Origin: Acidobacteriota bacterium
Lineage (GTDB): Bacteria; Acidobacteriota; Thermoanaerobaculia; Multivoradales; J023
Reading direction: 5' to 3'
Assembly: GCA_039194425.1 (NCBI GenBank)
Contig: JBCCVZ010000001.1
Span: 11,117 to 75,116 of the forward strand
DNA length: 64,000 nt
Shown: positions 9,504 through 53,653 of the stretch, in pieces
How positions within the stretch are numbered: the stretch's first letter is position 1
Layout of the letters: every line of letters begins with the position of its first letter
Notes under the pieces: generated by a model
What the model was told of the DNA's origin: nothing
Seen by the model: the letters and a program-made list of their open reading frames with translations, nothing else
The model's database searches: none
Position numbers and translations under genes: made by a program

Positions 9504-10977
9504 CTCCTGACCCTTTCTCGGAATCCCGGTCTAAATCTCTGAAAAGCCTACTAGTTACGGCGGTTCGAAGTCCGGATTCTGGAGAGTATTTTGCGCCTTC
9601 TGGGAACAGCAGGGCCTGAAGCTCACGGCGCTGAGCATCGGTTCCTTGCTCCCAGAGCCGGTCGGCGCTCGTGATCACCTCGGCGGCGAAAGCCACGGCG
9701 CCTTGAATATCGAGCTCATCAAGCTCGAGCTCAGACGCCTGGATCTTCGCCAGCATGAGCTGATCCTTGTACTTCTCGTGCAGACGCTCAAAGGTGGCTT
9801 CGTCGATGCGCTTCTCGACGATATGCGCCTCGACCAAATTGTCGATCTTCTGTTCGAGATCCGTAACGCGACGTCGGATCGCCTTGCGGGACCGGCCCAC
9901 CTTCGAGGCACTTTCCTCCCACGCCGTGATGACGCTGGCCTTCCAAATCGCGAGCAAAGCGTCGTCTGGGCGAAGGCGACGCAGACGACGTAGCCAAGCG
10001 TCGTGCAGCTTGTCAGCCCGAATCCGCCACGCATTGTTGTGCGGGTGGTAGTAGGCATAGGCTCGGCTTCGCCCCTTCGAAAGACTGCCTGTGAGCGGCT
10101 GACCTTCATCGTCGCTCACAAAGCCCTTCAGAGGGAACTCGGGGTGCTCAATCACGTGCGGCTTGGCCGCTCCGACTCCTTGCCGATTCTTGACCAGTTG
10201 GTCCTGCACTCGGCCGAAGAGACGATTCGACACCAAGGGCTCCCAATCGCCATCGGTGTTGAGCCCCATGCGGTCCATGACGCCGCAGTAGACTGGGTGC
10301 GTGAGTATCTTGCGCAGTGTACTGACGTGAAGCTTGCCGCCACGCTGACCACGAAACCCGCGCCCGTCCATGTGTCGTACAAGGCTCTTCAGGGTCCATC
10401 CGCCCGTGGCATACCTCTCGAAGGCATCGACGACGAGAGGCGCCGTCTTGGGGTCTGGCTCGATAGACTTTTGCCTATCCGGACGCTCGAAGTTCCTATA
10501 GCCGACAGGTGCCGGCCAGATCCAGCGCCCCTTCTTGGCGGCTTTGAGCATGTTCTTACGGATCGTCCGCGAACGATCGTCGTTGTTGAACTGCGCGTAG
10601 GCGGCGAGAATACCTCCGAAGAGCTGCCCCTCGGGCGAGTCGTCGACCTGGGGCGAGTCGAGCATGCGAATCGTGATGCCGTACGTGAGCAGCCGGTGGC
10701 GGATCACGTGATGCCCGTACTGGTCGCGGGCGAACCGCATCGCGTCGCGGACGATCAGCATGCTGACGCGCCCCTTGTTCCTGCGACACCAGTCCAGCAT
10801 CTCCTCGAAGACTGGTCGTGCCGTCGTCTTGGCGGACACTCCCGGCTCGATGAAAACGCGAACGAGCTCGATGCCCTGACGCGCGCAGTACGTCCGCGCG
10901 TCTTCCTCTTGCTGCTCCAGCGAGTAGCCTCTTGCTTGCTCTTCGCTGCTGACTCTGGCGTAGACGATCGCCCGCAT
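9439..10977 (-). CDS. Large serine recombinase (resolvase/invertase N-domain + recombinase domain + zinc-ribbon/coiled-coil)
   Basis: MRAIVYARVSSEEQ...YSLEQQ catalytic N-domain with the Ser nucleophile, followed by a large-serine-recombinase C-terminal region. Start taken at the internal ATG (MRAIV). The 3' end overlaps the tRNA-Ala 3' half on the opposite strand. Confidence 0.85.
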   Translation of the reverse strand: MRAIVYARVSSEEQARGYSLEQQEEDARTYCARQGIELVRVFIEPGVSAKTTARPVFEEMLDWCRRNKGRVSMLIVRDAMRFARDQYGHHVIRHRLLTYGITIRMLDSPQVDDSPEGQLFGGILAAYAQFNNDDRSRTIRKNMLKAAKKGRWIWPAPVGYRNFERPDRQKSIEPDPKTAPLVVDAFERYATGGWTLKSLVRHMDGRGFRGQRGGKLHVSTLRKILTHPVYCGVMDRMGLNTDGDWEPLVSNRLFGRVQDQLVKNRQGVGAAKPHVIEHPEFPLKGFVSDDEGQPLTGSLSKGRSRAYAYYHPHNNAWRIRADKLHDAWLRRLRRLRPDDALLAIWKASVITAWEESASKVGRSRKAIRRRVTDLEQKIDNLVEAHIVEKRIDEATFERLHEKYKDQLMLAKIQASELELDELDIQGAVAFAAEVITSADRLWEQGTDAQRRELQALLFPEGAKYSPESGLRTAVTSRLFRDLDRDSEKGSGVVERKGFEPSTPTMRTWCSPN

Positions 10978-10990
10978 AACGGGGCCTAGT

Positions 10991-11176
10991 CTACCTCGCG
11001 GTCGAGTGTGACCGAATGTATCGGCCGACGACCTCGCGGGCCGTGCGCATCGTCCACTCTTCGACCAACTCGACAAAGTCGTCGTCGGCGGTCTTCAGCC
11101 ACGCCTCGACAGCAGCAATCTCGCGCTCCGAGAGGCACGCGACGCGGCGTCTGATCTCTGCAGCGGCGGCGTTCAT
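10991..11176 (-). CDS. Small hypothetical protein (61 aa); possible recombination directionality factor or regulatory protein
   Basis: ATGA overlap with the dnaB stop. Sits directly upstream of the recombinase gene. No recognisable domain. Confidence 0.35.
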   Translation of the reverse strand: MNAAAAEIRRRVACLSEREIAAVEAWLKTADDDFVELVEEWTMRTAREVVGRYIRSHSTAR

Positions 11177-23759: not shown

Positions 23760-26009
23760 ATGCTGCCTCCAATGAGGAGCAAGAGGCTGTACTCTCATCG
23801 GTGGGCTCGAGGAGAGCCAGGATTGGGGAGAGATGTCTTGCCGGAACCAAACCCTGAACACTTGGAGAGACTGCAGGAGGGCGCTGAGGCGTGGAACAGC
23901 TGGTGTAGGGAAAAGGTGGTCCTCCGGTTGGATCGGAGGGGCGAGCTTGAGGGCGTCGAGCGCCAGCGCGCCGATCTCCCAGGCGCCAACCTCGCAGGCG
24001 CCAATCTCCACGGCGCCGATCTCGAGGCAGCCAATTTCCAGGGCGCCGATCTCGCAGACGCCAATCTCCAGGGCGCCAACCTCATATGCGCCAATCTCCA
24101 GGGCGCCAACCTCGCAGACGCCAATCTCCACGGCGCCAAGCTCCAGGGCGCCAACCTCGCAGACGCCAATCTCCAGGGCGCAATTCTCACGCGCGCGAAT
24201 CTCCAGGATGCCAACCTCCAGGGCTCCGTGCTCGCGCGCGCCGCGCTCCACGGCGCCAATCTCCACAGCGCCAAGCTCCTAGGCGCTGCGCTCACCGCCG
24301 CCAATCTCCAGGGCGCAATTCTCACGTGCGCAAGTCTCCAGGATGCCGATCTCCAGGGCGCCGAGCTTGCGCGCGCCGACCTCCACTTCGCCAAGCTCCA
24401 GGGCGCCAACCTCGCAGACGCCAATCTCCACGGCGCCAAGCTCGCAGACGCCAATCTCCACGGCGCCAATCTCCAGCGCGCCGAGCTCGCGCGCGCTGAT
24501 CTCCAGGGCGCCAATCTTCAGAGCGCCAAGCTCCAGGGCGCCGAGCTCCAGCGGGCCGAGCTCCAGGGCGCCAACCTCGCAAGCGCCAATCTCCGGAGCG
24601 CCAAGCTCCAGGGCGCTACGCTCGCCGCCGCCAATCTCCAGAGCGCAATTCTCACGCGCGCGAATCTCCAGGATGCCAACCTCCAGGGCTCCGTGCTCGC
24701 GCGCGCCGCGCTCCAGCGCGCCGCGCTCCAGGGCGCCAGGCTCCAGGGCGCCAATCTCCAGGGCGCGACGCTTCAGGGCGCTACGCTGTCCGCCCCTCGC
24801 GAAGGCTTCACTTCCTGGATGACCGAGATCCAGCACATCAATCTCGCGCGCGCCAGGGTCCGGGTCGCTGAGCTCCAGGGCGCCGATCTCCAAGACGCAA
24901 ATCTCGCGCGTGCCAAGCTCCAGGGCGCCAATCTCCAGGGCACCGTTTTCCAGGGCGCCGTTCTCAAAGGCGCCATGCTCCAGGGCGCAGTTCTCCGGGA
25001 CGTCGATCTCCAGGGCGCCGAGCTCTCGAGGGCTGCGCTTCACGACGCCAATCTTCAGAGCGCCAAGCTCCAGGGCGCCTGTCTTCAGGGCACCCAGCTC
25101 CAGGGCGCCAAGCTCCAGGGCGCAGTTCTCACGCGCGCGGATCTTCAAGGCGCAAGTCTCGCGCACGCCAAGCTCCAGGGTGCCCAGCTCCAGGGCACCA
25201 ATCTCGCGCGTGCCGATCTCCACGGCGCAAGTCTCCAGGGCGCAAAGCTCGGAAAGGCCCTTCTTGTCGATGCCAACCTTCGGGACGCTAGGATCGAGAA
25301 GGCAGACCTTCGGGGCGCCCAGCTCGGAGGAGAGCTCGCCGGCGCGAACTTTCGTGGGGCGAACCTTGAGGATGTGAGAGTCAGTAGAAGGCAGGCAGAC
25401 CTTCGACTTGACCGAAACTTCATCCGCGGTGCACGCTTCTCTCCGAAGGCCGCCGATCCGTGGTCTGTGCTGCGTCGGAACTATACAGGTTCGCGGCTAC
25501 TGTTCCACCTTCTCCTCCTTGTGGCTTTTGTGCTGCCGTACATAGCTCGGTCTCTGATGTGGGTGGGCGTGAACCACTCCCAACGGGCAATTGAACACTC
25601 GACGTTGACGCTCAAGGCTGTTGCTAACAATCTCGAAACCACCGCAGATCCAAACGCTCAAGCCGTGGCGCAGATCGCCGAGCGTCTCGGTCAGATGGAA
25701 GCCTGCTTGGCGGAAACATGTAAGGAGTTCTATGTTTGGGAGGTACTCCTTGGCGTGGACCAGGGCGTCGAGCGATGGATGTTGACGGTCGCCGTCCTAC
25801 TCTACAACCTGTTGCGTGGCGTGCTGACCTGGAAGGTGGGACCTTTGCGGGACGAGGAGGAGCGAACGGACACCACGCCAGCGCTCGATTCGTACCTTTG
25901 GCTCTTCTACCTTCACCGAGTGGCGACGGTTCTTCTCGTCGTCGCGGTGGTGGCGTTTGCCTACAGCACCGCTCAGTGGCTGTCCCTGACGGTGTCTCTG
26001 CCTGCCTGA
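23760..26009 (+). CDS. Giant pentapeptide-repeat protein with C-terminal polytopic membrane domain
   Basis: About 100 consecutive A(N/D)LxG pentapeptide repeats. An N-terminal AWNSWCREK motif common to pentapeptide-repeat proteins. The C-terminal 180 aa contains at least four TM helices. Confidence 0.8.
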   Translation: MLPPMRSKRLYSHRWARGEPGLGRDVLPEPNPEHLERLQEGAEAWNSWCREKVVLRLDRRGELEGVERQRADLPGANLAGANLHGADLEAANFQGADLADANLQGANLICANLQGANLADANLHGAKLQGANLADANLQGAILTRANLQDANLQGSVLARAALHGANLHSAKLLGAALTAANLQGAILTCASLQDADLQGAELARADLHFAKLQGANLADANLHGAKLADANLHGANLQRAELARADLQGANLQSAKLQGAELQRAELQGANLASANLRSAKLQGATLAAANLQSAILTRANLQDANLQGSVLARAALQRAALQGARLQGANLQGATLQGATLSAPREGFTSWMTEIQHINLARARVRVAELQGADLQDANLARAKLQGANLQGTVFQGAVLKGAMLQGAVLRDVDLQGAELSRAALHDANLQSAKLQGACLQGTQLQGAKLQGAVLTRADLQGASLAHAKLQGAQLQGTNLARADLHGASLQGAKLGKALLVDANLRDARIEKADLRGAQLGGELAGANFRGANLEDVRVSRRQADLRLDRNFIRGARFSPKAADPWSVLRRNYTGSRLLFHLLLLVAFVLPYIARSLMWVGVNHSQRAIEHSTLTLKAVANNLETTADPNAQAVAQIAERLGQMEACLAETCKEFYVWEVLLGVDQGVERWMLTVAVLLYNLLRGVLTWKVGPLRDEEERTDTTPALDSYLWLFYLHRVATVLLVVAVVAFAYSTAQWLSLTVSLPA
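23940..24800 (+). repeat. DNA-level 15/30-bp periodic tandem repeat (ggcgccaa(c/t)ct(c/g)c(a/g)g...) encoding the pentapeptide repeats
   Basis: Visible in the nucleotide sequence as near-identical ggcgccaacctcgcagacgccaatctccagggcgcc units. Confidence 0.7.
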
Positions 26010-26645: not shown

Positions 26646-27341
26646 GTGGCAGATCCAGAGCTTGTCTCTCTCCTGCGATCGAGTCCATGGAGATGGAACG
26701 ACTTCAGGAGGCGGAATCACTCGGCCTGGCAAGCGGACCTTACCGAGGCCGACCTCAGCCTGGCGGCCCTCAGCGACATCAACCTCACGAGAGCCAACCT
26801 CAGCGGCGCGAACCTTACCGACACCGACCTCAGCGGAGCGAATCTTACCGACACCAACCTCAGCGACGCCAACCTGAGCGGAGCGAATCTCAGCGAAGCA
26901 AACCTCAGCGGAGCCTACCTCAGTGGCGCCAACCTCGGCGATGCCAACCTCAGCGACGCCAGTCTCATCGGGTCCAACCTTAGCGACGCGAACCTCAGCA
27001 ACGCCAACCTCTTCGCTGCTCGCGTCATGGGTGCGGACCTCACCAGAGTCAACCTCTCGGGCGCCAAAATCGTCGGCGCAAGCTTTGGTGGCGCCTACAT
27101 CCGGCACGGCATCTTGCGAAACAAGCTCTCCGCCCTCATGCTAGTTCGCGGACACAGGAAGGAGTTTTCTGTCGACCGGCTAGCCGCTGTTCCCGACCTT
27201 GCCGATATTGCGATCATCTCGCCCTCTGGCACCTCAATGGAGATGATTGATCGCATCACTTGGGCGCTTGACCAGCTGGTGCAAGCTATTGAAGAAGACG
27301 AGGGGCGGGGTTCTGGTTCCGCAGCCGGCGGTGCGGCATGA
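26646..27341 (+). CDS. Pentapeptide-repeat protein (231 aa)
   Basis: N-terminal WRWNDFRRRN motif, then about 25 A(N/D)LSG repeats. Confidence 0.8.
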   Translation: MADPELVSLLRSSPWRWNDFRRRNHSAWQADLTEADLSLAALSDINLTRANLSGANLTDTDLSGANLTDTNLSDANLSGANLSEANLSGAYLSGANLGDANLSDASLIGSNLSDANLSNANLFAARVMGADLTRVNLSGAKIVGASFGGAYIRHGILRNKLSALMLVRGHRKEFSVDRLAAVPDLADIAIISPSGTSMEMIDRITWALDQLVQAIEEDEGRGSGSAAGGAA

Positions 27342-29946: not shown

Positions 29947-30801
29947 TCAGCGTGGATCGTCTGGAGCTGGCGTGCGATCCGAATGATGCTTTTCTTGGGT
30001 CATTTCCTTGGCCAAGCGTGAACGGGCTTCGGCAGCCCGTAGGTAGTCGGTAAGAGACACCAGCTTGGTTCTTAGCCGAGATAGCTCAGGGAACGTGGCA
30101 GCTGCGCTCACCAACTTCGGATCCAAATCAACTCCCGCACGGGCTACTTGCTCCGCCCGGAATCTCAATTCTTCTGTTCTGAGTTGCTCCCCGAGAGGGC
30201 GAAAATAGTCAGGGCCGCTTAGTCTTCTCTGGTTGGCTCGTGCCAACTCCAGCAGTTCCTCCAGGATTGCTTCCAACGAACTTGACGAATCTGATTTTGA
30301 TGCCTCTACCGGAGATTCGCGCTCCCGGAGCGCATCAAGGTTTCCCTCGAGCTCGGGCCACCAGACATCGAATGTCTTCTTCAGCTGCGGATCGGTGAGG
30401 CGCTCCGCCTCGCCGAGGCGCCGGTTGAGCCCCTGGACCAGTTTCAGCACATCGTCGCGATTGAAGACTACAGACTGAAACTGGAGCAAGGGCCCTTGGA
30501 CCTCGGACCGTCTCACTCCGACGAGGAACGGCACGACGTGCGACTTGTCGAGGCTTCTCGACAGGGCACCGGCTTCGAAGTGGACCCAGGGAGCCCTCAG
30601 GTTTTCTTGGGTGACGCAGATGATGCCGTAGCTCGCGTCTTCGAGCTCGGCGGCGATATCTGAGCTCCAGCGAGCGCCTTTGTCGATGTCTTCCGAGGAG
30701 ACGTAGGGTCTCAGGGCTTGGAGCACCGATGGCAGCCAGTCTCGGAGGGTGAGTGCGATCTGATGGCTTTGGGTGCCGGACCAGCTCAGAAAGGTCTTCA
30801 T
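29947..30801 (-). CDS. TIR-domain protein 1 (TIR_2-like N-domain + helical C-domain)
   Basis: MKTFLSWSG (betaA) ... SSEDIDKGARW ... GIICVTQENLRAPWVHFEAGAL follows the bacterial TIR_2 pattern. Start at the internal ATG. GGAG upstream. Confidence 0.7.
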   Translation of the reverse strand: MKTFLSWSGTQSHQIALTLRDWLPSVLQALRPYVSSEDIDKGARWSSDIAAELEDASYGIICVTQENLRAPWVHFEAGALSRSLDKSHVVPFLVGVRRSEVQGPLLQFQSVVFNRDDVLKLVQGLNRRLGEAERLTDPQLKKTFDVWWPELEGNLDALRERESPVEASKSDSSSSLEAILEELLELARANQRRLSGPDYFRPLGEQLRTEELRFRAEQVARAGVDLDPKLVSAAATFPELSRLRTKLVSLTDYLRAAEARSRLAKEMTQEKHHSDRTPAPDDPR

Positions 30802-30809
30802 AGCCGTTT

Positions 30810-31673
30810 TCACTCCGGACCTTCGCTGCGTCTCGGTTGAAGCCAATATAGGTCGGACCGGGGAATACAATTCTCGTTAGAAAGTATTTCTGCAATCCTA
30901 TTGATATCTTTCATGAGTTCCGCGGTCACTGGGGTGAGCGCATCCCGGTCCACTGGGGAATCCATATCTAGAAGGTGCGCAAGATGAAGTGCAAATTCGC
31001 GGAGCCTATCGAGCGTGCGAACAAGGTCTTGGCCATGAACGATAGGTAGTCGCACATAGACTTTTTCTTGGGGAGCGAGCTGCTTTGGGTCGCTCAGGAG
31101 TCTCTGGTTGGCGCGAGTCAGCTCTAAGATTTCCTCCAGGATCGCCTCTGATGACGAGGGTTTCTCTTTGGCCGGCTCAGTAGCTGGCTTGGCTGATGCG
31201 ATGTTCTCAAGGTCGGCCTTGAGTCGAGGCCACCAAACGTCGAAAGAATCCCGCACGCGCTCTTCGGTCAGGCGCTCTTCTTCGCCAAGACGCTGGTTGA
31301 GACTGCGGACCATCTTCAGCACATCGTCGCGATCGAAAATCACGGATTGAAACTGGATCAACGGCCCCGGAACCTCGGACCGCTTCACGCCGAGAAGGAA
31401 CGGTACGACGTGCGACTTGTCGAGGCTCTTCGACAGGGCCCCGGCTTCGAAGTGGACCCATGGGGCCCTCAGGTTCTCTTGGGTGACGCAGATGATGCCG
31501 TAGCTCGCGTCTTCGAGCTCGGCGGCGATATCCGAGCTCCAGCGCGCGCCTTTGTCGATGTCTTCCGAGGAGACGTAGGGTCTCAGGGCTTGGAGCACCG
31601 ACGGCAGCCAGTCTCGGAGTGAGAGTGCGATCTGATGGCTCTGGGTGCCGGACCAGCTCAGAAACGTCTTCAT
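30810..31673 (-). CDS. TIR-domain protein 2 (paralog of protein 1; divergent C-domain)
   Basis: The first ~150 aa are about 90% identical to protein 1. ATGA overlap with the upstream membrane-protein gene. Confidence 0.7.
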   Translation of the reverse strand: MKTFLSWSGTQSHQIALSLRDWLPSVLQALRPYVSSEDIDKGARWSSDIAAELEDASYGIICVTQENLRAPWVHFEAGALSKSLDKSHVVPFLLGVKRSEVPGPLIQFQSVIFDRDDVLKMVRSLNQRLGEEERLTEERVRDSFDVWWPRLKADLENIASAKPATEPAKEKPSSSEAILEEILELTRANQRLLSDPKQLAPQEKVYVRLPIVHGQDLVRTLDRLREFALHLAHLLDMDSPVDRDALTPVTAELMKDINRIAEILSNENCIPRSDLYWLQPRRSEGPE

Positions 31674-32767
31674 TGTTGATCATCCGACAGGAGCTCAAAG
31701 TCAAGAGCCGCCGAAGGGTGCTGGAGAAACCTGACTGCTACACTAATGTCAATCGCCGCCCTCTCGCCAAGTCGGGGGAGAAGCGGCAAGAGATCAACTC
31801 TGTCTGAATTGCACTCCAGATAGGCTCGGCTGTCCCCTCGGATCTCAATTTCTCCAGTAAACTGAATCAGCGCTAAGGTACTGCTTTCTGTGAGCCCGAC
31901 TATCCTATAGCTGCCACGGATACTAGTGGGACCTGGCTCATAGCCAGGAGGGGGCCTGAATCTAGGAGGGGCCCTAAAGGGAGAGTCCAGGTCGCCGCCA
32001 AAAGACCTACGCAACTCCCTATTCACGAAGATTGCGATGTCTGCGTAGGCGGCTGATGTCACGACAATCTCAACGGTGGTACTCGGGCGATCCCACAAAG
32101 TCTTGTGAGCAAAGCACTCGATGTACGTGTCAACTGTTGAAGCTTCTGGAATTCTGATATTTGCATTCTGTGCAGCTCGGCCCAGTCGGAAGGAAAGAGA
32201 CTCTCTCCGGTCTCCGGAAGCCTTGGACGTCTCAAGGAGTGTCGCAATCGCGTTCTCGATCCTTGCGAGTTCCTTTCTCTTCGCCGCGCGGCCTGCCTCT
32301 GATCTAGGCTCAGCAAGACTTTCTAGCTGAACGATATCACTCTCATATTCGGCAATGATGGCTCGGGCCTTCTCCTGGTCTAGAGTCAGTTCATCAACCT
32401 GCCTCTTGAGGATCGCCACTCTGTGCACTTCTTCTCGCTCGCCCAAAGCCCAGGAATGGACTGGATCTCCAGGATCCAGGGTAGCTAGAAGGAAATCCAA
32501 GATATCTTCCTTGTTGTCAATCGACTGCTTAGTACCAATGATCCGCTCAAGGTAACGAATTTGCAGTTCATTCTGCGCCCTCTGATTCTCGACGGCAGTC
32601 TTGAACAGGCCGTTGATGGCGGCGGTCATCGGGCCAATCGCACCGATGACCGCGATCAGGAGCACGATGCTAGTCGACTTCGAGAGCTCTCGAGATCGCG
32701 GCTTCGTCTTGCCGGGGGCTGCGAGGTGTCGCGCACGGACTCTCTTTTTGAGTGCTTTCCGAGTCAT
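31670..32767 (-). CDS. Single-pass membrane protein with coiled-coil and C-terminal domain of unknown function; candidate effector
   Basis: N-terminal TM (IVLLIAVIGAIGPMTAAINGLF). A long coiled coil. A roughly 170-aa C-terminal domain with no recognisable SIR2, Macro or SLOG motifs. Confidence 0.55.
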   Translation of the reverse strand: MTRKALKKRVRARHLAAPGKTKPRSRELSKSTSIVLLIAVIGAIGPMTAAINGLFKTAVENQRAQNELQIRYLERIIGTKQSIDNKEDILDFLLATLDPGDPVHSWALGEREEVHRVAILKRQVDELTLDQEKARAIIAEYESDIVQLESLAEPRSEAGRAAKRKELARIENAIATLLETSKASGDRRESLSFRLGRAAQNANIRIPEASTVDTYIECFAHKTLWDRPSTTVEIVVTSAAYADIAIFVNRELRRSFGGDLDSPFRAPPRFRPPPGYEPGPTSIRGSYRIVGLTESSTLALIQFTGEIEIRGDSRAYLECNSDRVDLLPLLPRLGERAAIDISVAVRFLQHPSAALDFELLSDDQQ

Positions 32768-33168
32768 AGGGCTCTCGACCGACGGTGCTCATTGGTTGAA
32801 AGGGCGACCAACGGAGCAAGGAACGAGCGGGCTCGGCGGCGTCGCTGCATAGTGCGGGGCCGCCGCCTGTCCCGAGCTCACATCTAGTCTCATCATAGAC
32901 TGGCCTGCCCGCCGATTCAACAGACTCGCTGGCTCGCGGCCTCCGCGCATCCCAATTAGGCCCTTGAGTCAGTTGAGGATACTCGGGCATCAGGTGCTGG
33001 CCAGGCATTCCCGTCAGCGGTTCTGCCCAGATGCCTTGATAGAGTCAGGCTCCACCGAGATTCGGGAGGCGTTTGAGCGCTGGGCGGGGATCGGCTGGAT
33101 GTTTTGAGGGCGCCGCATCTGATCGCGGCGAAGAGGCCTTATCTCGAGAGACGTCTTGTGGAGTAGGA

Positions 33169-34500
33169 ATGGGAAGCAAGACTGCCCCGAGGCTGTTCTT
33201 CAGCTATTGCCAAGAGTCGGAATCGCACTCTGCGCGTGTTCGAAACCTGGCACGGCGGCTCGCCGATGACGGATGCGTCTGCATCCTGGATCAATGGACT
33301 GCCCCACCTGAAGTCGGTTGGCCGCAGTGGATGAATTCTCAGATCGAAAAGGCGGAGTTTGTTCTCGTCGTTTGCACAGAAGAGTATCTGCAACGAGCGA
33401 CTGGACAAAGAAAACCCTCTGGCGTGCGGTTCGAGTGTGTTCTCATCATTCAGGACCTCTATGATTCTGCGATGGTCAACAAGAGGTTCATTCCGATCTT
33501 GTTCAGCGATTCGTCGCCAGAGCACATTGTTCGGCCGCTAAAGGGTTTTACCTATTATCGAGTCGACCGTGACCGAAGTTATGAAGATCTCTTGCGACAT
33601 ATCACCAATCAGCCAAGGCACATTCCTCCAACGCGAGGAAGGGTTCCGCATCTGCCACCGGAAAGCCCGCCTGCGGTCTCATCAAAGGCAGCAGTTCGAG
33701 ATCTCGATGCACCTGCCGCAGGCTTTTTACAGTCGCCGGCCTTCATCTATGGAAAGCTCAGCGCTAGGGGTCTTCTAGATTCGAAACTCACCGAGAACCC
33801 TTATCGCTTTTCCGCGGATCCGACCGACGAAACGAGCGTCGGAGTTGAAAAGAATGTCTCTGCCTTCCTCTGGATCCCACACAGCGATTACATGAAGCAG
33901 CCTCAGCCCTTTACCCCATTGGTGGCTCTGTGCACGCTGCGCCCTAAAGAAGTGGTCAATTCTACCAGGGGATTGTTCGGTGACCGAGCGCTCTCAGTTG
34001 CCAAGAGACGTCCTAGCAAGCTTTGGCCCTCCGAGAAAGAACTGCTCTTGTCAATTGCGGCAGAGATCCTCGAAGAGTGCTTCACAGTCGCAGTCACAAC
34101 CCCCGCAGCGCTTCTGAGCGGAGGTAGACGCAGACCGGATCTAGCGTACAGAGTGCTCTTGGACCTGTTTCTCTTCCCTCTGCTCGACATGCATAAACGG
34201 CTTGAAGTTGACCAGTTCCACTTGAAGCTGCAAGGCGGAGATCCCAAGAGAAACAGCTTGCTGAAGACTACCAAGCAAGATATAAAGAGTGTGTTCCCTC
34301 ATAGGTCGAATACGGTGGAACTCGTTGAGGCGACTGAAGAATCCACCATCTTTCTTGAGGTCGGCCGCTATCTTGGGTGGATCCTCAATCGACACTACAA
34401 CGAGGGCAAGCGCGATTGGCTTGACCGACTCAAGACAGCAATTGGCAATGAGTCGAAAGGTTCATTGGATGTAAGAGAAGAGCCCCTCCCGCATGGATGA
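33169..34500 (+). CDS. SEFIR-domain protein with large C-terminal domain of unknown function
   Basis: RLFFSYCQESESHSARVRNLARRLADDGCVCILDQW...VLVVCTEEYLQRA matches the SEFIR consensus. Strong GGAG RBS. Locally low GC. Confidence 0.7.
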   Translation: MGSKTAPRLFFSYCQESESHSARVRNLARRLADDGCVCILDQWTAPPEVGWPQWMNSQIEKAEFVLVVCTEEYLQRATGQRKPSGVRFECVLIIQDLYDSAMVNKRFIPILFSDSSPEHIVRPLKGFTYYRVDRDRSYEDLLRHITNQPRHIPPTRGRVPHLPPESPPAVSSKAAVRDLDAPAAGFLQSPAFIYGKLSARGLLDSKLTENPYRFSADPTDETSVGVEKNVSAFLWIPHSDYMKQPQPFTPLVALCTLRPKEVVNSTRGLFGDRALSVAKRRPSKLWPSEKELLLSIAAEILEECFTVAVTTPAALLSGGRRRPDLAYRVLLDLFLFPLLDMHKRLEVDQFHLKLQGGDPKRNSLLKTTKQDIKSVFPHRSNTVELVEATEESTIFLEVGRYLGWILNRHYNEGKRDWLDRLKTAIGNESKGSLDVREEPLPHG

Positions 34501-34964
34501 GCTCGAATCTCGTGGCGACCCCCCTTCGGGTCTTCAGTTTCTGCGCACCATAACCCGTGGTATGGAACGCATGCGGCGTCCGCTAGGCTAGCCCAACGCT
34601 AGCCTATGGGTGTGCCGAGCTTCATCTGATCTCTATTGGTAATTTCGACGATCGCATTGTTCTCTCCTGTTCTCTCCGGTCGGTTGGTGCGGTCGGTCCT
34701 TGTCACTTCGACAGGGATTCGGGGCGAGCTCGTGCCCAAGGAGCGTCGAATAGTCCAATGTGAAAGTGACGCCGGAGTCTCCGGCTTGGAGCATTCAATG
34801 CCCACATGGCATCGGTTCGGGGGGATCCTTTTTCTCCAAGTGTGAGCCCTGGATCGGCTTGACACACTCATCATGGGAATTGCGACTCCCAGTGGGAACA
34901 TAACTTGCCCTTAGCTCCAATGTATCGCTGCGGACGCAGGTTCGTCAAACTGCGAAGCGCCTTC

Positions 34965-35630
34965 CTAAATCTCGCCGGCGAGGGCGGCCTGGGCGATGGC
35001 GTCGGCGACGGGGTCGAGGCCGGGGATGTCGAGGTCTTTGAGCTTGTCGAGCCGGCGCTCGAGCTCTTGGGCGTTGATCACGCCGTTCTGGAGGTCTTTC
35101 ACGATGCCTTCCAGGATCTGGCGGATGCGGTTGCTGTCGTCGCCAAGGCCGTTCAGGAGGTCGCTGATCGAGGCGGTGCCGCTCTGGAAGTCGGCGAGCA
35201 GGGCCTGAAGCTCCTGCTTGCGGTTCGCGACCTCGACGCCCGCCTGGCGGAGGTTCGTCATCATCTCCGCCAGCGGTCCGGCGACTTGCTCGACGTTGCC
35301 GACCAGCTGGGCGCCGAGCTCGCGAGTGTCGATGAGGCCGGCTTGCACCAGGTCGAGCCCGGCTTGAACGACGGCGTTGTTCTCCTGCGCGATGTGCTGG
35401 ACGGCTTGGAGGCTCTCGCGGTTGCGCTGGATGTGACCTTCGATGGTGCCGAGGTGGAGGCGCTGGAGCTCGATCGAGCGTTCCATCGCCTCGACTCTGC
35501 GCTGCGTCTCGACGTAGACGGCCTGCAGCTCGATGGCTTTGCCCGCGGCGCGCTCGGCCTCCTTTCCGGCGGCCTTGATGTCGCCGCGTGCTTTCTGGGT
35601 GGCCCGGATGAGGCGTTGCAGGGCTCCCAT
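34965..35630 (-). CDS. Coiled-coil phage protein (tail-associated)
   Basis: All-helical heptad-rich sequence directly downstream of the tape-measure gene. Confidence 0.45.
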   Translation of the reverse strand: MGALQRLIRATQKARGDIKAAGKEAERAAGKAIELQAVYVETQRRVEAMERSIELQRLHLGTIEGHIQRNRESLQAVQHIAQENNAVVQAGLDLVQAGLIDTRELGAQLVGNVEQVAGPLAEMMTNLRQAGVEVANRKQELQALLADFQSGTASISDLLNGLGDDSNRIRQILEGIVKDLQNGVINAQELERRLDKLKDLDIPGLDPVADAIAQAALAGEI

Positions 35631-38600
35631 CAGGCGGCTTCCGCGGTGTCGGAATCGCTGAGGTCGACGTCGGCGACTTCGGCGTCGAGCCGCTGCAGGT
35701 CTTCGAGCAGGCCGGCGAGCTCGGTGCGCGCCAGGCCGATGGCGGTGCGTCCCCGTTCGACGCCGCGTTCGATGGCGCTGCCGATCGCTTCTTCGAGCTT
35801 GGGCGCCTGGCCCTCGAGGTCGACCAGGTCGCCGCGCAGCTCGCCGACCTGGGTGCGCAGGGTGTCGGGCAGGCCGAGGCCGGTAAGGGTCGCCTGCAGC
35901 TCCTCTCCGGCGGCCTTGGTTTCGCCGATGAGGGTCTGGACGCGGTCGAGCTCTTCCTCGGCGGCGGCGAGCGCGCCCTCGGCGGCATCGCCGGCGCGGT
36001 CGCTCTCTTCCTTGGCTTTGGCGGCCTCATCGGCCGCGCGCTTGCCTTCCTCGGCGGCCTTGGCGGCCTCGTCGGCCGCGGCCTTGCTGCCGTCGGCCAG
36101 GTCCTTCCCGGCCTCACCTCCGCGGTTGGCCGCGGCCTCCAGTTGGTTCGCAGCCTCGGACGTCGCGTCGGCGCCTTGCTGGATCGCCTGGGCCGCTTCT
36201 TCGACGGTTGGGATGAGGTGTTTTGTGCCGTCCTCGAGCTTGATGTAGTTCTCGGCGGCTCGCTCGACCGCGGCGCCACTCTCTTCGACCTTCGACGAGG
36301 AGTCAGACACCCGCTGTGCGGCGTCCTCGACCTGCTCGGCGGTCGTTTGCGCCTGGGTCCCCAGCTGCTCGATCTCGTTCTTGAGGGTGACGGTGCCGCC
36401 GCCGGCTCCGTCCATCGAGGCGCCCATGTCGGAGGCCGCGGTTCCGGCCGAGAGCAGACCATCGGCGGCGGCGCGGACGCTGCCCTGGAGGCGGGTCATG
36501 GCGGTCGTAGCGCCGTCGGTGGGGGTGACCAGCTCGTTGCCGAGCGCGTTGTTGAGGTTCGCGACTTCCTGGGTGATGACGCCGCCGGCGTCTTGGATGA
36601 TCTGGACCTGCTCTTGCACGACCTCGCCAAGCGCGCGCTGCTTCTCGATCGGCAGCTGCAGGATGGCCGTGTAGTTGTCGGACAAGCGCTGGAGCAGCGC
36701 CTCGGCAGCGGCGGCCTTGTCCTCGAGCATCTCGTCGACGCCGAGCGCGTCGAGGATCGCTTTGCGGGCGCTCTCCCCCGCCTCTTTCTGGCTCTCGGTG
36801 AGCCCGTCCCACAGGCTCCGGATCTGATCGACGCCGTCCTCGACACCGCGGGTCAGGTCGTTCTGGCCCTCCTGGATGTCCCGCATCGCGCCGGTGGTCG
36901 CGTCGCGATTCTGGGTCCAGGTTTCGGCGAGGGCATCGCCAAAACGCTCGAGGCTCTCTTTCCCCTCTTTCGAGCTCTCGACGATGAGGTCGATGCCCTC
37001 TTTGGCCGCACCCTGGAAAGATTCTTTGATGGAGGCCGCGACCTGCTCGACGTTGGTGCCCAGGTCTTCGAGTCCGGGGACCTGGCCGATCAGCTTGCCG
37101 AGCTGTTCGACTCCGGCGCCGACTGCCGTGAGCACTCCGCCCACGAGCGCCTTGATCGCGCCGGTGATGACGCTCGCGCCGGTGCGCACGGCAGCGACGG
37201 TGCCGCCGATCGCGAGGACGATGGTGCCGAGTGCGCGGCCGAGCTCGAAGGCCGCGTTGCCGCCGCGGCGCAGCCCGCCGGTGAGGTCTTGCACGAAGGC
37301 CCGTAGCGCCGGGGTCGCGCCTTCGCCCACCTCGAGCGTGACGCCCTCCCAGGCCGACTTGAGGTTGGTGACGTCGCCTTCGAGGTTGTCGAGTCGCAGC
37401 TCGGCCATCTCGCCGGCGGCGCCGGCGCTGTCTTCGAGCGCCTTCTGCAACTCGCGCAGCGGCCCCGTGGCGCCGGCGGCGGCCAGGATCGAGGCGACAC
37501 CGCGCTTGCCGAAGATCTCGTACGCTTGCCCGGCGTCGATCCCCGCGACGGCGAGTTTCTCGATGACAGGGATGAGGCCATTGGCCTCGGGATTCACGTC
37601 CTCGAGGCTCAGGCCGAGTTCGCTGAGCGCCCGCTTGGCGCCGGCGGTGGGCTCGACCAGGTTGAGGAGCATGTTGCGGAGCGCGGTGCCGCCCTCTTCG
37701 CCCTTGATGCCCGCGTTGGCGAAGGTGCCCAGGGTCGCGATCACCTGCTCGAGCGGGATGCCGAGCGCGGCCGCGACGGGCGCGACCTTGGCCAGGCCTT
37801 CGCCGAGCTGGCTCACGGTCGTCGCCGATTTGGCGCTTCCCGCGGCGAGATTGTCGACCACGCGGCCGAGCTCGGAAACCGGCAAGCCCATGCCTCGCAG
37901 GGCGTCGGACGCGATCTCGGCAGCCTGGCCGAGATCGAGACCTCCGGCGGCGGCGAGCTCGAGCACGCCCTCGACGCCTTCGTAGGTCTCGTTGACGTCG
38001 AACCCCGCGCGCGCCAGGTTCTCCATCGCCTCGGCGGCCTGGGTGGCGCTGAACTGGGTGGTGGAGCCGAGCGCTTTCGCGCGCTCGACGAGGGCATCGA
38101 AGTCCTTAACGCTGGCCTGCAGGATCGACTGCACGGCGCCCATCTGGCCGCTGAACTCGGAGATGGTGCCGAGCGCCGAGCGCATCTGCTGCGCGAAGCC
38201 GGCGAAGCCGAGCGCGGCGATCGCCGTCTTGAGGCCGCCCAGGCTCGCAACCTGCTCGCGGATCCCGGCGGTGAAGGCGCGCGCCGCGCCGGTCGCGCGG
38301 TAGTAGGCCGAGGTGAGCCGGCTCCCGACGGCGGTGGCCGCCGAGCCGGCGGAGGTGGCGATCTGGCGTAACACGCCGAAGAGACCGCGCTTGGCGCCGC
38401 TGGCGGCATTCGCCGCGGCGCCGCTGCGGCGGGTAGCCTGGGCGCTGCGCTCGACGCCGCCCGCGGCGCTCGAGGCGGCCTGCCCGAGCTGCTCCGTTTC
38501 CTGCTCGAGCTTGTCGACGTCTCCGGAGGCGGTCTTCGCCTCGGAGCCGAGCTTCTTGGCGCCCTCGCTCAGCTTGTCGAGCTCGTCTCCGCCGGTGACG

Positions 38601-38638
38601 GAGACTTCGCCGCGGATGCCGAAGCGGCTCTCACTCAT
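35630..38638 (-). CDS. Phage tail tape-measure protein (1002 aa)
   Basis: Ala/Gly-rich helical protein with the conserved TMP core (FSATQAAEAMENLARAGF...GGTALRNMLLNL). Confidence 0.85.
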   Translation of the reverse strand: MSESRFGIRGEVSVTGGDELDKLSEGAKKLGSEAKTASGDVDKLEQETEQLGQAASSAAGGVERSAQATRRSGAAANAASGAKRGLFGVLRQIATSAGSAATAVGSRLTSAYYRATGAARAFTAGIREQVASLGGLKTAIAALGFAGFAQQMRSALGTISEFSGQMGAVQSILQASVKDFDALVERAKALGSTTQFSATQAAEAMENLARAGFDVNETYEGVEGVLELAAAGGLDLGQAAEIASDALRGMGLPVSELGRVVDNLAAGSAKSATTVSQLGEGLAKVAPVAAALGIPLEQVIATLGTFANAGIKGEEGGTALRNMLLNLVEPTAGAKRALSELGLSLEDVNPEANGLIPVIEKLAVAGIDAGQAYEIFGKRGVASILAAAGATGPLRELQKALEDSAGAAGEMAELRLDNLEGDVTNLKSAWEGVTLEVGEGATPALRAFVQDLTGGLRRGGNAAFELGRALGTIVLAIGGTVAAVRTGASVITGAIKALVGGVLTAVGAGVEQLGKLIGQVPGLEDLGTNVEQVAASIKESFQGAAKEGIDLIVESSKEGKESLERFGDALAETWTQNRDATTGAMRDIQEGQNDLTRGVEDGVDQIRSLWDGLTESQKEAGESARKAILDALGVDEMLEDKAAAAEALLQRLSDNYTAILQLPIEKQRALGEVVQEQVQIIQDAGGVITQEVANLNNALGNELVTPTDGATTAMTRLQGSVRAAADGLLSAGTAASDMGASMDGAGGGTVTLKNEIEQLGTQAQTTAEQVEDAAQRVSDSSSKVEESGAAVERAAENYIKLEDGTKHLIPTVEEAAQAIQQGADATSEAANQLEAAANRGGEAGKDLADGSKAAADEAAKAAEEGKRAADEAAKAKEESDRAGDAAEGALAAAEEELDRVQTLIGETKAAGEELQATLTGLGLPDTLRTQVGELRGDLVDLEGQAPKLEEAIGSAIERGVERGRTAIGLARTELAGLLEDLQRLDAEVADVDLSDSDTAEAA

Positions 38639-50288: not shown

Positions 50289-50791
50289 CAGGGGACTCCT
50301 TGGGCCGCAGCGGCCACCGGATCGACGTACCACCAGGTCTTGGTGCGGTCGAGACCGCGCGGCAGGTCGACGGTTTCTTGGTAGAGCGCACGGCCCGCCA
50401 CGATCGCGTTCGTGACGCCGGCCGCGTTGAAAGTGAGCTGCTCGTCGTCGACGACGTAGAGCAGGTTTCCGGCCCCGGGAGTCCCTCCGCCCACGACCTC
50501 GGCGAGGAAGACGCGGTCGGTCTCGAAGCGCACCACGCCGGCGTGGGATGGGCCTCCGGTGTTGTTGAAGGCCACGTTGCGGTGGGCGTCGGGGTCGTCG
50601 GGGAAGCGTTGCGGGATGGCGATGCCGCCCCAGCGGTGGCCCGCGAGGTCGGCTCCCGGGCTGGCGAGACCTTGCGCATCGAGGATCACGAAGGCGCCGA
50701 TGTGAAAGAGGGTGTCGGCGGCGACATGGGCATGGGTCGAGCGCATGGCGCGGCCCAGCTGGTACGGCCGTTCGAAGGCTGCTTGGAGCAT
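50288..50791 (-). CDS. Phage head protein (167 aa)
   Basis: ORF between the protease and the capsid gene. Confidence 0.45.
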   Translation of the reverse strand: MLQAAFERPYQLGRAMRSTHAHVAADTLFHIGAFVILDAQGLASPGADLAGHRWGGIAIPQRFPDDPDAHRNVAFNNTGGPSHAGVVRFETDRVFLAEVVGGGTPGAGNLLYVVDDEQLTFNAAGVTNAIVAGRALYQETVDLPRGLDRTKTWWYVDPVAAAAQGVP

Positions 50792-52317
50792 CAGCCGTCC
50801 CCCTTCAGCGGGTATTTCTGGGCGAGCTCAGCGGCCCTCTCGGGCGCCAGGCCGTGGGCGGAGGCGACCGGAGGGGCGTCGTGCTCGGGGCCCGCGAGCG
50901 AGCCAGCGCCCATCGCCTCGAAGGCGGGGGCGGCGTCGAGCGCGGCGACCACCTGGTCCCGGAGCGTCGCGGCGTCGAGGAGGTGGGACGAGTCGCCGGC
51001 GCGCGCGGCGAGCTCGAGCTGATGGAGCAGCTGCGGCACTCCGGCGTCCCGCATCGCTGGCGTGAGCTGATGGCTCGCGGTCAGGCGGTCGACGTGGCCC
51101 TGTGCTGCTGCGTGCGCATCGGCTTGAAGCCAGCCGAAGGGCTCCCGCGCGTTGAGGCGGTCGATCTGCGCGTCTTGGTCGGCAGGGGCCATGCCGCGCA
51201 GCGCGGCACGCATGAACGCGTGCTCGTCCTGGGGCACGCGGGTTGCGAGCGCTTGCTCGAGACGCGCCGAGCCCCGCGGCTCGGGGGGTGGCGGCGCGTG
51301 GTGGTGCCGCGGGGGTGCAGCTTGTGTAGGCGGGGTCGCTGCGGGCGTCTCGGCGGCCGGTGGTTGGGCCGCGGGCGCCGGCGTCGACTCGGGGGACGTC
51401 GTCGGGGTGCTCATGGTGCGGGCTCCTCGGGTCTGTGGCTCCGGGGTGGAGTCGTCGTCGGTGATGGGCTCCTCGGGCGGCGAGGCCGCGCCGGTGAGCT
51501 CGGCGATCAAGCTCGAGTAGGAGGGGACGATGCGGTCGACGAGGCCGGGCGGCGCCGCGGCGGCGGTCCAGTAGCGGCCTTCGAGCGCGTCGACGTCGGC
51601 CTGCGACAGGCCGCGGTGCTGGGTGAGCGCCTGCACCAACTGCGCTTCGGTCTCGTCGACAAAGCGCTGGTAGTTCTCCGTCATCGCGTCCGTAACCGGG
51701 GCACCTTGGACGAAGTCGGCCTTGCGGCGCTGGGTTTGCACGACGACGCGGCGCCATCCGATCGACGCCTCGTGGAGCGAGCTGTCCCAGAAGGCCGAAT
51801 AGGCGCCGAGGCTGCCGACGGTGGCGGTGGGCTCGGCGACGATCTCGGTGCACGGCGAGAGCAGCCAGTAGGCTGCAGACGTCGCCGCGCCGTCGGCGAA
51901 TCCGACGACGGTCTTGGTCGCCGCGAGTTCGGCGACGGCATGGATCGCGCCCCACAGGCCGCTCGTCGAGCCGCCCGGCGAGTCGTCGGACCAGAGCAGG
52001 ACGGTCTCGATCGAGTCGTCGGCGCGGGCGCGCTCGGCGGCCTGGACGATCGCCGGATAGGTGGTCGCGACGCGGGAGGACCACCACGGCGGGTCGCGGC
52101 GGTCGAGCGCGCCGGCGACGCGGATCTGCGCCACGCCCGGGGCGAGCTGGCGGTAGACCTCGAACTCGTCGCGCTCGGGAGGGTCGTCCCACAGGAACGC
52201 ATCGGGGCTCGGGAGGGCCCAGTGGGCGATGGCCATGACCGGCGGCGGTGCGATCGGGCGGGCATTCGGACGCAGGCCGAGCCGCTCCGCGGCGCGGCGG
52301 ACGAGGTTACGCGGCAT
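50791..52317 (-). CDS. Prohead protease (S49/ClpP-fold) fused to scaffold-like C-terminal region
   Basis: VLLWSDDSPGGSTSGLWGAIHAV...GFADGAATSAAYWLLSPCTEIVAEPTATVGSLG matches the SppA/S49 pattern. Pro/Ala-rich linker and a helical C-terminus. Confidence 0.6.
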   Translation of the reverse strand: MPRNLVRRAAERLGLRPNARPIAPPPVMAIAHWALPSPDAFLWDDPPERDEFEVYRQLAPGVAQIRVAGALDRRDPPWWSSRVATTYPAIVQAAERARADDSIETVLLWSDDSPGGSTSGLWGAIHAVAELAATKTVVGFADGAATSAAYWLLSPCTEIVAEPTATVGSLGAYSAFWDSSLHEASIGWRRVVVQTQRRKADFVQGAPVTDAMTENYQRFVDETEAQLVQALTQHRGLSQADVDALEGRYWTAAAAPPGLVDRIVPSYSSLIAELTGAASPPEEPITDDDSTPEPQTRGARTMSTPTTSPESTPAPAAQPPAAETPAATPPTQAAPPRHHHAPPPPEPRGSARLEQALATRVPQDEHAFMRAALRGMAPADQDAQIDRLNAREPFGWLQADAHAAAQGHVDRLTASHQLTPAMRDAGVPQLLHQLELAARAGDSSHLLDAATLRDQVVAALDAAPAFEAMGAGSLAGPEHDAPPVASAHGLAPERAAELAQKYPLKGDG

Positions 52318-53653
52318 CAGCGATCTCCTCGGTGGGTGGCGGGTCGGCGGCGGGAGGGGCGGGGACCACCTGCGAGGCGCCCTCGACGGCGGGCTCGCCG
52401 TCGCGCAGGGCAGGGACGCGCCAGACCTTGCGCGCGTGCCGCTCGGGCACCGCGACACCGTGCGCGAGCGCGGCAGCGATGCCGTTGAAGAGCTGCTCGC
52501 GGTCCTCGAGCTCGAGCGTGTCGAAGGCGAAGTCGGGCACGGCGACCCGCGGGCCGAAGTTGATCCGCACGAGGGGCGCGACGAGGTCGCACTGCAGCGT
52601 CTTCTGCAGGGTCCGCGCGTCGGCGACGATCGCCTCGCTCCTGATCTCGGAGGCGACCTTGTCGGAGGCGAACGCGCCGACGCCCGGGCGAAGGCCGAGC
52701 GTGTTCACCTCGCCGTTGAAGAGGCGGCCAATCTCGCGCCGCAGAGCGTCGCAGAACTCGGCATAGGTGCCGTTGCTCGAGCGCATGGCTTCGAGCAAGA
52801 CGAGTTCGACATCCTCGGGGAGAGCAATGGCTTGCTCGGTCTGGAAGGACTCGGCGGCAGCGAGGACTGCCTGCTGCATTTTCGCGTCGGCAGCTTTCGC
52901 CTCGTCGCCCTGGCCTTTCGCGCGCGGGTACTTGCCAACTGGCGTTGGCTGCGCGTATCTCTCGAGGAAGATTGCCCAGAATGCCCGCGCATGCTTGAGC
53001 ACGAACCAGGACAGATAGCAGCGATCGAGCAGTCCGGGGCCACCCCAGGGAGAGTCGACGCTGCCGGAGCGCATCACGAGGAATTTCAGCTCGGGGGCGC
53101 GCGGTGGCTCGCTCGTCGTGCGGCGGACATGCAAGTCGCGCCGCCGGAAGAGAAAGCGCCGCATCGGCCGGTCGTAGACGCGGAGCGGTGCCCAGCGGCC
53201 CGCCCAGGGGCCGTCGGCGATCTCGCCCCACTCGAGCTCGGTGAAGCTGATGCCGCGCCCGCGCATGTCGACGAGACCTTTGTGCAGCGCCGTGTCGAAG
53301 TCGGGGATCGCCGCGTCTTCGGGATCGATGCCGGTCTCGCCGAGCAGGTGGCGCACGAAGTCGGCGGCTTTGCGGTCGATCGGCCGCGGCCCGCCGGGAG
53401 TCACCAGCCGCGGCAGGCTGAGCACGGCGTCGGCGCGGCGAATCGAGACGGCCGCGATCATCGCGTCGCGCTCCATCTCGTCGTAGAGCCCGCCGAGCGC
53501 TTGCCCGGGCTTCGAGCGCGTCGCCAGGATCTCGGACGGGTGCGGCTCTTCCCACAGGCGTCCGGTGCGCGGTCCCCACAGGCGCCACTCGGTGGTCGAT
53601 TCGGCGTCGGCCATCTGGCGGCCGAGCCATGTGGAGCGGCGCGGGTCAGGCAT
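52307..53653 (-). CDS. Phage portal protein (Mu gp29/DUF935-like)
   Basis: Position between TerL and the protease. About 449 aa. Internal ATG (MPDPRR). Confidence 0.55.
   Translation of the reverse strand: MPDPRRSTWLGRQMADAESTTEWRLWGPRTGRLWEEPHPSEILATRSKPGQALGGLYDEMERDAMIAAVSIRRADAVLSLPRLVTPGGPRPIDRKAADFVRHLLGETGIDPEDAAIPDFDTALHKGLVDMRGRGISFTELEWGEIADGPWAGRWAPLRVYDRPMRRFLFRRRDLHVRRTTSEPPRAPELKFLVMRSGSVDSPWGGPGLLDRCYLSWFVLKHARAFWAIFLERYAQPTPVGKYPRAKGQGDEAKAADAKMQQAVLAAAESFQTEQAIALPEDVELVLLEAMRSSNGTYAEFCDALRREIGRLFNGEVNTLGLRPGVGAFASDKVASEIRSEAIVADARTLQKTLQCDLVAPLVRINFGPRVAVPDFAFDTLELEDREQLFNGIAAALAHGVAVPERHARKVWRVPALRDGEPAVEGASQVVPAPPAADPPPTEEIADAA

Follow-up and report, generated by a model that had tools for sequence, protein, structure and literature searches.

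A prophage-borne SEFIR gene from an Acidobacteriota genome carries a predicted RNase H2/DUF3800-like C-terminal domain, a candidate infection sensor that is shuffled among immune effectors

A single SEFIR gene protects Bacillus subtilis from phage phi29 (Millman et al., preprint), and SEFIR depletes NAD+ by means of its N-terminal domain and is countered by phage NARP1 (Osterman et al., preprint). Here we describe a complete SEFIR gene with a different C-terminal half in a 64,000-nucleotide stretch of DNA from an Acidobacteriota bacterium (assembly GCA_039194425.1, contig JBCCVZ010000001.1, positions 11,117 to 75,116 of the forward strand; hereafter the window, to which all coordinates refer). 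The gene (33169..34500, + strand; ATG at 33169, stop codon 34498-34500 included) encodes 443 amino acids, in which an N-terminal SEFIR domain is joined to an RNase H2-like domain that recurs behind many other immune effectors. A preliminary description made from the sequence letters had already likened the gene to single-gene SEFIR defence acting through NAD+ depletion, and the two reports cited above are the literature that bears this out. To our knowledge, the cue sensed by single-gene SEFIR proteins has not been described.

The ATG is preceded by a GGAG Shine-Dalgarno sequence (33160..33163, + strand, 5 nt 5´ of the start codon), read from the sequence, as the preliminary description had noted. 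An alternative TTG start at 33073 would lengthen the open reading frame (ORF) by 32 residues; the 443-aa form is the one annotated by NCBI (P0001, 'toll/interleukin-1 receptor domain-containing protein', from an Acidobacteriota metagenome-assembled genome (MAG); 100% identity, 100% coverage), and the same SEFIR locus is also present in a Logan assembly. The gene has 53.3% GC, with 57% GC at third codon positions (GC3), whereas GC3 reaches 89% in the tail genes next to it and the window as a whole has 68% GC. A check for a pseudogene or frameshift, as had been proposed beforehand, found the gene intact: the SEFIR plus C-terminal domain architecture is kept across deep divergence in a second full-length protein (P0039, 447 aa; 33% identity over 440 residues), which argues that the gene is not a pseudogene. 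It is also monocistronic, given the 400-bp divergent spacer on its 5´ side (32768..33168 on the ORF map, between the gene and an oppositely oriented operon) and, on its 3´ side, a weak terminator-like hairpin together with a 464-bp non-coding gap that ends at a convergent gene. The hairpin, found by a pattern scan (34517..34532, + strand, 17 nt 3´ of the stop codon), has a folding energy no better than that of shuffled sequence (z = 0.2), so that a terminator at this place is only suggestive.

The N-terminal domain (33187..33627, + strand; aa 7-153) belongs to the STIR clan. The strings from which a SEFIR domain had been proposed (FFSYCQESESH, ILDQW and VLVVCTEEYL) are present, and the profile search that had been recommended put the Pfam SEFIR family (PF08357) above threshold (E 1.5e-11, 45.2 bits with a cut-off of 23, aa 9-132); TIR_2 (PF13676) was also above threshold (E 5.8e-14, 53.1 bits, aa 10-141). 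The PADLOC bSEFIR model (PDLC03957) matched aa 6-171 at 1.7e-44, with the profile covered only at positions 38-203 of 412 and aa 172-443 left unaligned. The matches to PDB sequences were all to SEFIR domains, namely the Bacillus cereus 'Sefir domain protein' (BcSEFIR; 5y8e/5y8f, 3.8e-15) and, weakly, human Act1 (0.018). We modeled the full-length protein with AlphaFold2, using a 77-sequence alignment as input (mean predicted local distance difference test score, pLDDT, 80; > 90 for aa 230-420). In this model, aa 7-153 are predicted to adopt a flavodoxin-like fold, for which the best match is BcSEFIR (5y8e/5y8f, template modeling score, TM-score, 0.67-0.72 on the target), with the helical SEFIR assembly of Act1/IL-17RA/RB (9ot1) next and bacterial TIR domains after it; the top four matches are all SEFIR domains.

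Residue conservation was examined in an alignment of eight SEFIR proteins that includes the closest relatives, in which D41, W51-P52, W54-M55, Q58, V67-V68-C69, E71, G85-V86 and E89 are invariant. Asp41 (33289-33291) lies within an ILD-W motif (ILDQW here, ILDRW in BcSEFIR), and Glu89 (33433-33435) lies within an invariant G-V-x-x-E that is aligned to GVGTE of BcSEFIR. In the SEFIR protein of Bacillus sp. NIO-1130, a mutation reported as D40A abolishes defence (Millman et al., preprint). From the numbering, and not from an alignment, we assume that Asp41 is the position of this residue. In NADases of the STIR clan, the catalytic glutamate follows the third strand/helix region, and by analogy Glu89 would occupy this place as the putative catalytic residue. 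The closest sequence relatives of the N-terminal domain are 39-44% identical to it and carry FGE-sulfatase or NB-ARC/STAND C-termini, which points to this SEFIR clade being an effector cassette mounted on alternative sensors. A motif that is also invariant in this alignment and spans the end of the SEFIR domain and the start of the linker (LxRxLTNQPR...G...LPP, aa 141-163, 33589-33660) is likewise common to SEFIR proteins with wholly different C-termini (FGE-sulfatase, NB-ARC), and this pattern suggests that it is a functional extension of the cassette.

The remainder of the protein, set aside in the preliminary description as a large domain of unknown function, consists of a disordered Pro-rich linker (33628..33732, + strand; aa 154-188, pLDDT < 50), a folded domain of ~240 aa (33733..34443, + strand; aa 189-425) and a tail of 18 residues. 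It had been regarded as unannotated, and rightly so: aa 172-443 have no match in the Pfam, NCBIfam or PADLOC models, and the domain is undescribed in the libraries and literature searched. An exhaustive phmmer search with aa 170-443 against 1.84 billion cluster representatives returned 91 proteins with the domain at E <= 1e-3; for 72 of these, E was <= 1e-10. Word-indexed homologue searches were less revealing; with the full protein they returned only SEFIR-domain relatives and none for the C-terminal domain, and with the C-terminal domain alignment they returned the query alone.

Architectures were counted by a Pfam scan of 77 aligned members of the family. The domain is C-terminal in all of them except P0058, in which 121 residues follow it, and what precedes it varies widely. 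TIR_2 is the N-terminal partner in 40 members (16 also match TIR), Metallophos in five, SEFIR in four, SIR2_2 and EAD1 in three each, trypsin in two, and CHAT and a nucleotide cyclase in one each. DUF4062 is the partner in two members at E <= 0.001 (P0033 is a weak additional match, E 0.0056, below the Pfam cut-off), and a caspase domain in two at E <= 0.001 (P0096 and P0075). DUF4062 is the NADase NIR, and MisA-type metallophosphatases cleave NAD+. When ten members were scanned singly, all PADLOC matches were N-terminal and none fell within the C-terminal domain; the family-wide PADLOC scan returned effector-type models only, among them ThsB, bSEFIR, Aga-TIR, PycC and LmuA.

The association with effectors extends to proteins that are not fused. 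In a complete genome (CP147989.1; L107 5208-6795), the lone C-terminal domain is encoded by a 264-aa gene that shares 23 nt with the HD-CE gene upstream of it, and on a metagenome contig (L109 2-1944), a 284-aa lone gene shares 4 nt with the metallophosphatase gene upstream of it. The metallophosphatase is thus found both fused and adjacent to the domain, and such fusion/fission is a classic sign that two partners function together. A small EACC1 gene lies 5´ of P0075, one of the caspase fusions, and of P0066, whose long N-terminal region has no Pfam match and which we grouped with the caspase members by its EACC1 context. EACC1-cysteine-protease pairs have been described as modules that proteolysis releases to form pores and that are 'fused to diverse sensors' (Gao laboratory, 2025 preprint). 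In 'System 4', EACC1-caspase proteins have ~50 alternative C-terminal domains and a cyclase sometimes replaces the caspase (Kaur et al., 2020); a cyclase in place of the caspase also occurs in the family described here. Behind a changing set of established immune effectors, the C-terminal domain stays the same, and this argues for its being a sensor or regulatory module.

The neighborhoods of seven homologues share no partner gene, in line with the single-gene layout that had been suggested for this locus. The TIR fusions P0038 and P0023 are monocistronic, with ~500-bp flanks and unrelated chromosomal genes around them; a YhcG-type nuclease and a fragment of a type I restriction-modification system are encoded near P0023. 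P0025, a DUF4062 version, is found among insertion sequence elements, an integrase gene and a gene for a 1251-aa SIR2 protein, and P0033 follows an integrase gene.

An AlphaFold2 model of the C-terminal domain by itself (pLDDT 88.5, predicted TM-score 0.88) has the topology beta-beta-beta, helices, beta, helices, beta, helix, beta, two helices, which includes the elements expected of an RNase H-like fold (a beta1-3 meander, helix, beta4, helix, beta5). Fold similarity was assessed by Foldseek on the model. The first-ranked PDB match is RNase HII of M. jannaschii (1eke, E 9.5e-5, TM-scores 0.43/0.48); RNase HIII (4py5) and human RNase H2A (3puf) come next, and the one significant match among viral models (BFVD) is a DUF3800 protein (E 9e-4, TM-scores 0.52/0.55). 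DUF3800 has itself been modeled on 1eke and 3puf, with DE and QxxD as its defining motifs. Profile methods returned none of these families: 59 members scanned singly with Pfam at E <= 5 gave scattered noise, with no PF12686 or RNase HII, and the family profile found nothing relevant among PDB sequences. The residues conserved in >= 60% of members are F192, P211, Y212, D217, T219, W235, P237, T249, C255, K290, P312, Y327, Q328 (Arg in the query), P337, H342, K369, R400, W404, N411 and W417, of which Cys255 and His342 are near-invariant. D217, in the beta1-beta2 loop, is the sole acidic residue in this set; the conservation table has no conserved acidic residue at the ends of beta1 or beta4 or after beta5. 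Since the DEDD and DE...QxxD carboxylates are absent, RNase H chemistry appears to have been lost, and the domain is apparently an RNase H2/DUF3800-like fold without it.

The C-terminal tail (34444..34497, + strand; aa 426-443) has low pLDDT and contains GSLDVREEPLPHG, the query version of a motif, approximately [GS]-[PS]-S-[HR]-L-E-E-[PS], that is found in about 17 of the 77 family members irrespective of the N-terminal effector. This S-[HR]-L-E-E-P tail may be regulatory.

The gene is carried by a prophage of ~48 kb (~9400-57000). At one end, a large serine recombinase (integrase; 9439-11076, - strand) abuts tRNA-Ala(cgc) (9428-9503) and is followed by genes for a DnaB-like helicase, a DnaC-like loader and replication initiation. 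The tape-measure gene (35630-38638; phrog_1533 at 1e-86) lies on the far side of the SEFIR locus, as do genes for a protein with an endolysin domain, for a neck protein, for the protease of head maturation (50791-52458) and for the large terminase (53646-55691). Composition profiles and direct GC counts delimit a low-GC islet of ~5 kb and four genes (29947..34964, 56.1% GC) within a prophage of 70.1% GC, with the tape-measure gene and a 221-aa gene immediately upstream of it. The preliminary description had taken the AT-rich patch as a mark of the SEFIR gene and hence of its horizontal acquisition. The gene is indeed AT-rich, and we rejected the idea that low GC marks it alone; acquisition is supported for the four-gene islet within the prophage, and not for the single gene. 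Megablast of 21 kb around the SEFIR gene against INPHARED phages gave no match, searches of IMG/VR returned no close relatives of the SEFIR protein or of the adjacent 221-aa tail-region protein, and Rfam at the gathering threshold returned tRNA only.

The other three genes of the islet form an operon divergent from the SEFIR gene (29947-32767, - strand), with a promoter-like site found by a promoter scan at 32920-32892 (- strand). Its 365-aa protein (31670-32767, - strand) has a hydrophobic helix at the N-terminus, contains a coiled coil and matches no family. The two tandem TIR genes are paralogous (81% identical over 300 nt), and both match the PADLOC 'TIR-TM' model at ~1e-95 over profile positions 1-211 of 293 only, from which it follows that the TIR proteins are without the transmembrane part. 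The operon is probably a second, independent TIR defence system with its membrane component encoded as a separate protein.

Other genes in and near the prophage were also noted. Two encode pentapeptide-repeat proteins of 749 aa (23760-26009, + strand; Pfam Pentapeptide E 1e-109) and 231 aa (26646-27341, + strand); both are on the strand opposite to most prophage genes and are possible cargo or anti-defence. Just beyond the terminase end of the prophage there is a second low-GC patch (58001-59100, 54% GC), in which a 330-aa ORF (58102-59094, + strand) has a ClpP-like SDH-type serine protease domain. A further ORF of 1447 aa (59487-63830, - strand) has a coding-like GC3 of 0.81 and no Pfam match at E <= 0.001.

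Taking the gene, its family and its setting together, we think it somewhat better than an even bet that the prophage carries here a stand-alone protein for abortive infection (superinfection exclusion) of the bSEFIR type, kept latent, with the C-terminal domain as its sensor and the SEFIR domain as its NADase. What we infer from the comparisons above is defence itself, the NADase activity, the role of the C-terminal domain as a sensor, the kind of trigger and oligomerization. In the uninfected cell, the protein would be latent. Upon infection, the C-terminal domain, having lost the nuclease carboxylates, would recognize a cue as a sensor or regulatory module; the fold ancestry and the conserved Lys, Arg, His, Tyr and Asn residues favor a nucleic-acid structure or a nucleotide-derived ligand as the most plausible cue, and a phage protein is possible too. 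Ligand binding would then lead to self-association and to head-to-tail SEFIR assemblies, which domains of the STIR clan require for a composite active site around the conserved Glu (here Glu89), and the assembled SEFIR domains would hydrolyze NAD+, so that phage replication is stopped and the infected cell is sacrificed. As the gene is prophage-borne, its role would likely be superinfection exclusion to the benefit of the lysogen. The preliminary description had raised the C-terminal domain as a possible novel sensor, and real support for this comes from the lack of annotation, the carboxylate-less RNase H2/DUF3800-like fold and the shuffling among effectors. A bolder version, which we put forward as speculative and rather doubtful, is that the domain founds a family of catalytically dead RNase H2/DUF3800-derived sensors of nucleic-acid signatures of infection (RNA:DNA hybrids, embedded ribonucleotides or replication intermediates). 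These sensors would license at least eleven effector types (SEFIR, TIR, SIR2, NIR/DUF4062, metallophosphatase, HD-CE, caspase with the EACC1 pore, trypsin, CHAT, cyclase and EAD1-recruited) by ligand-induced assembly, with the S-[HR]-L-E-E-P tail serving an autoinhibitory or docking function.

Several observations weigh against the proposal of a latent SEFIR NADase under a C-terminal sensor. By hmmscan, the N-terminal domain scores slightly higher as TIR_2 than as SEFIR (53.1 versus 45.2 bits); the published selection rule required a SEFIR signal above the TIR signal, by HHsearch against PDB and Pfam (Millman et al., preprint), and among solved structures SEFIR domains come first both by sequence and by fold. 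The NADase activity of the clade is extrapolated from one Bacillus protein, the C-terminal half of which cannot be aligned with that of the query. The C-terminal domain family is also very rare. Its 90%-identity clusters hold 1-9 sequences, almost all on short metagenome contigs, and a single degenerate DNA pattern for [AS]YQ....hhh.Phh..H[RK] found 87 loci in GTDB genomes and 8 in IMG/VR, with no true members among either set (by hidden Markov model for GTDB). The variable C-termini of EACC1-caspase proteins, moreover, were read by Kaur et al., 2020 as effectors, not as sensors. Finally, Cys255 and His342 could be an unrecognized catalytic site, which would make the C-terminal domain an enzyme and not a sensor.

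These last two points belong to an alternative that we regard as unlikely, in which the C-terminal domain is a nucleic-acid-cutting effector with a rearranged RNase H-fold site (for example Cys255/His342), and SEFIR is an oligomerization or adaptor module as in IL-17 signaling. The RNase HII/DUF3800-like fold would suit such an enzyme, as an RNase H fold 'with a catalytic rearrangement' has been reported for DUF3800 and several Lys and Arg residues are near-invariant along with Cys255 and His342; SEFIR was, besides, first proposed as an interaction module (Millman et al., preprint), and the interpretation of Kaur et al. points the same way. However, the partners of the domain are nearly all established killing or signaling enzymes (TIR, SIR2, DUF4062/NIR, metallophosphatase, caspase with EACC1, cyclase), so that every such protein would have the odd architecture of two effectors without a sensor. 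The RNase H carboxylates are all missing, the SEFIR domain keeps its putative catalytic residue Glu89, and SEFIR defence is reported as NAD+ depletion. Some bacterial TIR domains produce signals, as in Thoeris, and the SEFIR domain might similarly be a ThsB-like signal generator or co-operating component that makes a nucleotide signal for an effector elsewhere, possibly the divergent transmembrane-TIR operon. This operon (29947-32767) shares the 400-bp divergent control region and the low-GC islet with the SEFIR gene, and one family member has a nucleotide cyclase instead of TIR. We consider this improbable: no ThsA, SLOG or Macro protein was found among the neighbors scanned by Pfam and PADLOC, no TIR-TM-type or ThsA-type gene was found in the seven homologue neighborhoods, and published SEFIR defence takes one gene only. 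In these scans the locus does not show the pair that makes up Thoeris, a TIR protein (ThsB) with a ThsA effector (SIR2/SLOG or Macro/TM).

Two further alternatives bear on whether the gene defends at all. It lies within a prophage, right after the tape-measure region, with no antitoxin or other regulator evident, and TIR-domain proteins also have roles outside defence (as discussed for TirS); the gene might therefore be non-defence cargo, either an addiction or toxin module or a means of manipulating host NAD+ in the phage's own lytic cycle. Such a role seems to us about one chance in ten in view of the homologues, which are mostly outside recognizable prophages (P0038 and P0023 among chromosomal genes), and of the domain partners, which make up a canonical anti-phage repertoire. 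Prophage-encoded defence islets, moreover, are well known. We give very little credence to the gene having been acquired horizontally and now decaying without a function. The atypical composition, with codon usage unameliorated relative to the neighbors (GC3 57% versus 89%), and the great rarity of the family could be read in this way, but the ORF is uninterrupted, distant homologues can be aligned over the whole of both domains, no family-invariant residue is lacking, the ribosome-binding site is good and the AlphaFold2 model is confident. None of these alternatives fits the architecture data as well as a prophage-carried, bSEFIR-type abortive-infection protein with the C-terminal domain as its sensor.

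The SEFIR part of this protein was to be expected; what makes the locus valuable is an RNase H2-like module that is unannotated and widely shuffled, together with the testable idea of this module as a new infection sensor. The domain is a candidate for a sensor family missing from defence-annotation tools, a handle on whether an inactivated RNase H2-type fold became an infection sensor, in parallel to the dead Argonautes of SPARTA, and a handle for engineering sensor-effector swaps. The split versions with HD-CE (L107) and metallophosphatase (L109) would be useful natural controls for the sensor hypothesis. The locus is, in addition, an example of TIR/SEFIR defence cargo carried by a prophage in Acidobacteriota, and for this phylum we know of almost no experimental phage biology.

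Several described systems resemble this protein in part. SPARTA and short pAgo TIR-APAZ systems combine a TIR-type NADase with a catalytically dead nucleic-acid module of nuclease lineage (Argonaute), activated by oligomerization. This is the logic proposed here, and the N-terminal domain has fold matches to 8qlp, 8i87 and 8spo; in contrast to them, the SEFIR protein is a single small protein with no Argonaute, APAZ or guide-binding domain, and nucleic-acid sensing by it is hypothetical. In DSR1/DSR2 (SIR2) and Vulcan (NIR with HEAT repeats), a latent N-terminal NADase and a C-terminal sensor of phage cues are likewise part of one chain, but the sensors are large helical-repeat arrays, whereas here SEFIR is combined with a compact, ~240-aa, RNase H-like putative sensor. 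Four candidates were rejected as having another architecture: Evangelion (short AUX tail), Vulcan (HEAT repeats), Vesta (alkaline-phosphatase partner) and Metis (PUA and metallophosphatase). DUF3800 (PF12686) and type-2 RNase H provide the best fold matches of the C-terminal domain, and DUF3800 is known from defence systems too, namely as an accessory of type VII retrons and in a Cas12a-associated TPR-DUF3800 protein; the domain differs from them in having no profile match and another conserved set (Y212, D217, C255, K290, Y327, H342, K369, R400, W404 and N411). The domain occupies the variable, or sensor, slot of EACC1-cysteine-protease modules (System 4) in P0075, and by context in P0066, whereas the SEFIR gene is without a protease or EACC1 partner and has SEFIR as its effector. 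In comparison with bSEFIR of Bacillus sp. NIO-1130 (Millman et al., 2022), the C-terminal half is another domain, the host is an Acidobacteriota MAG, and the gene is prophage-borne and known here from its sequence; what the two have in common is the N-terminal SEFIR domain, a length of ~400-450 aa, the single-gene organization and a mobile or defence-island context.

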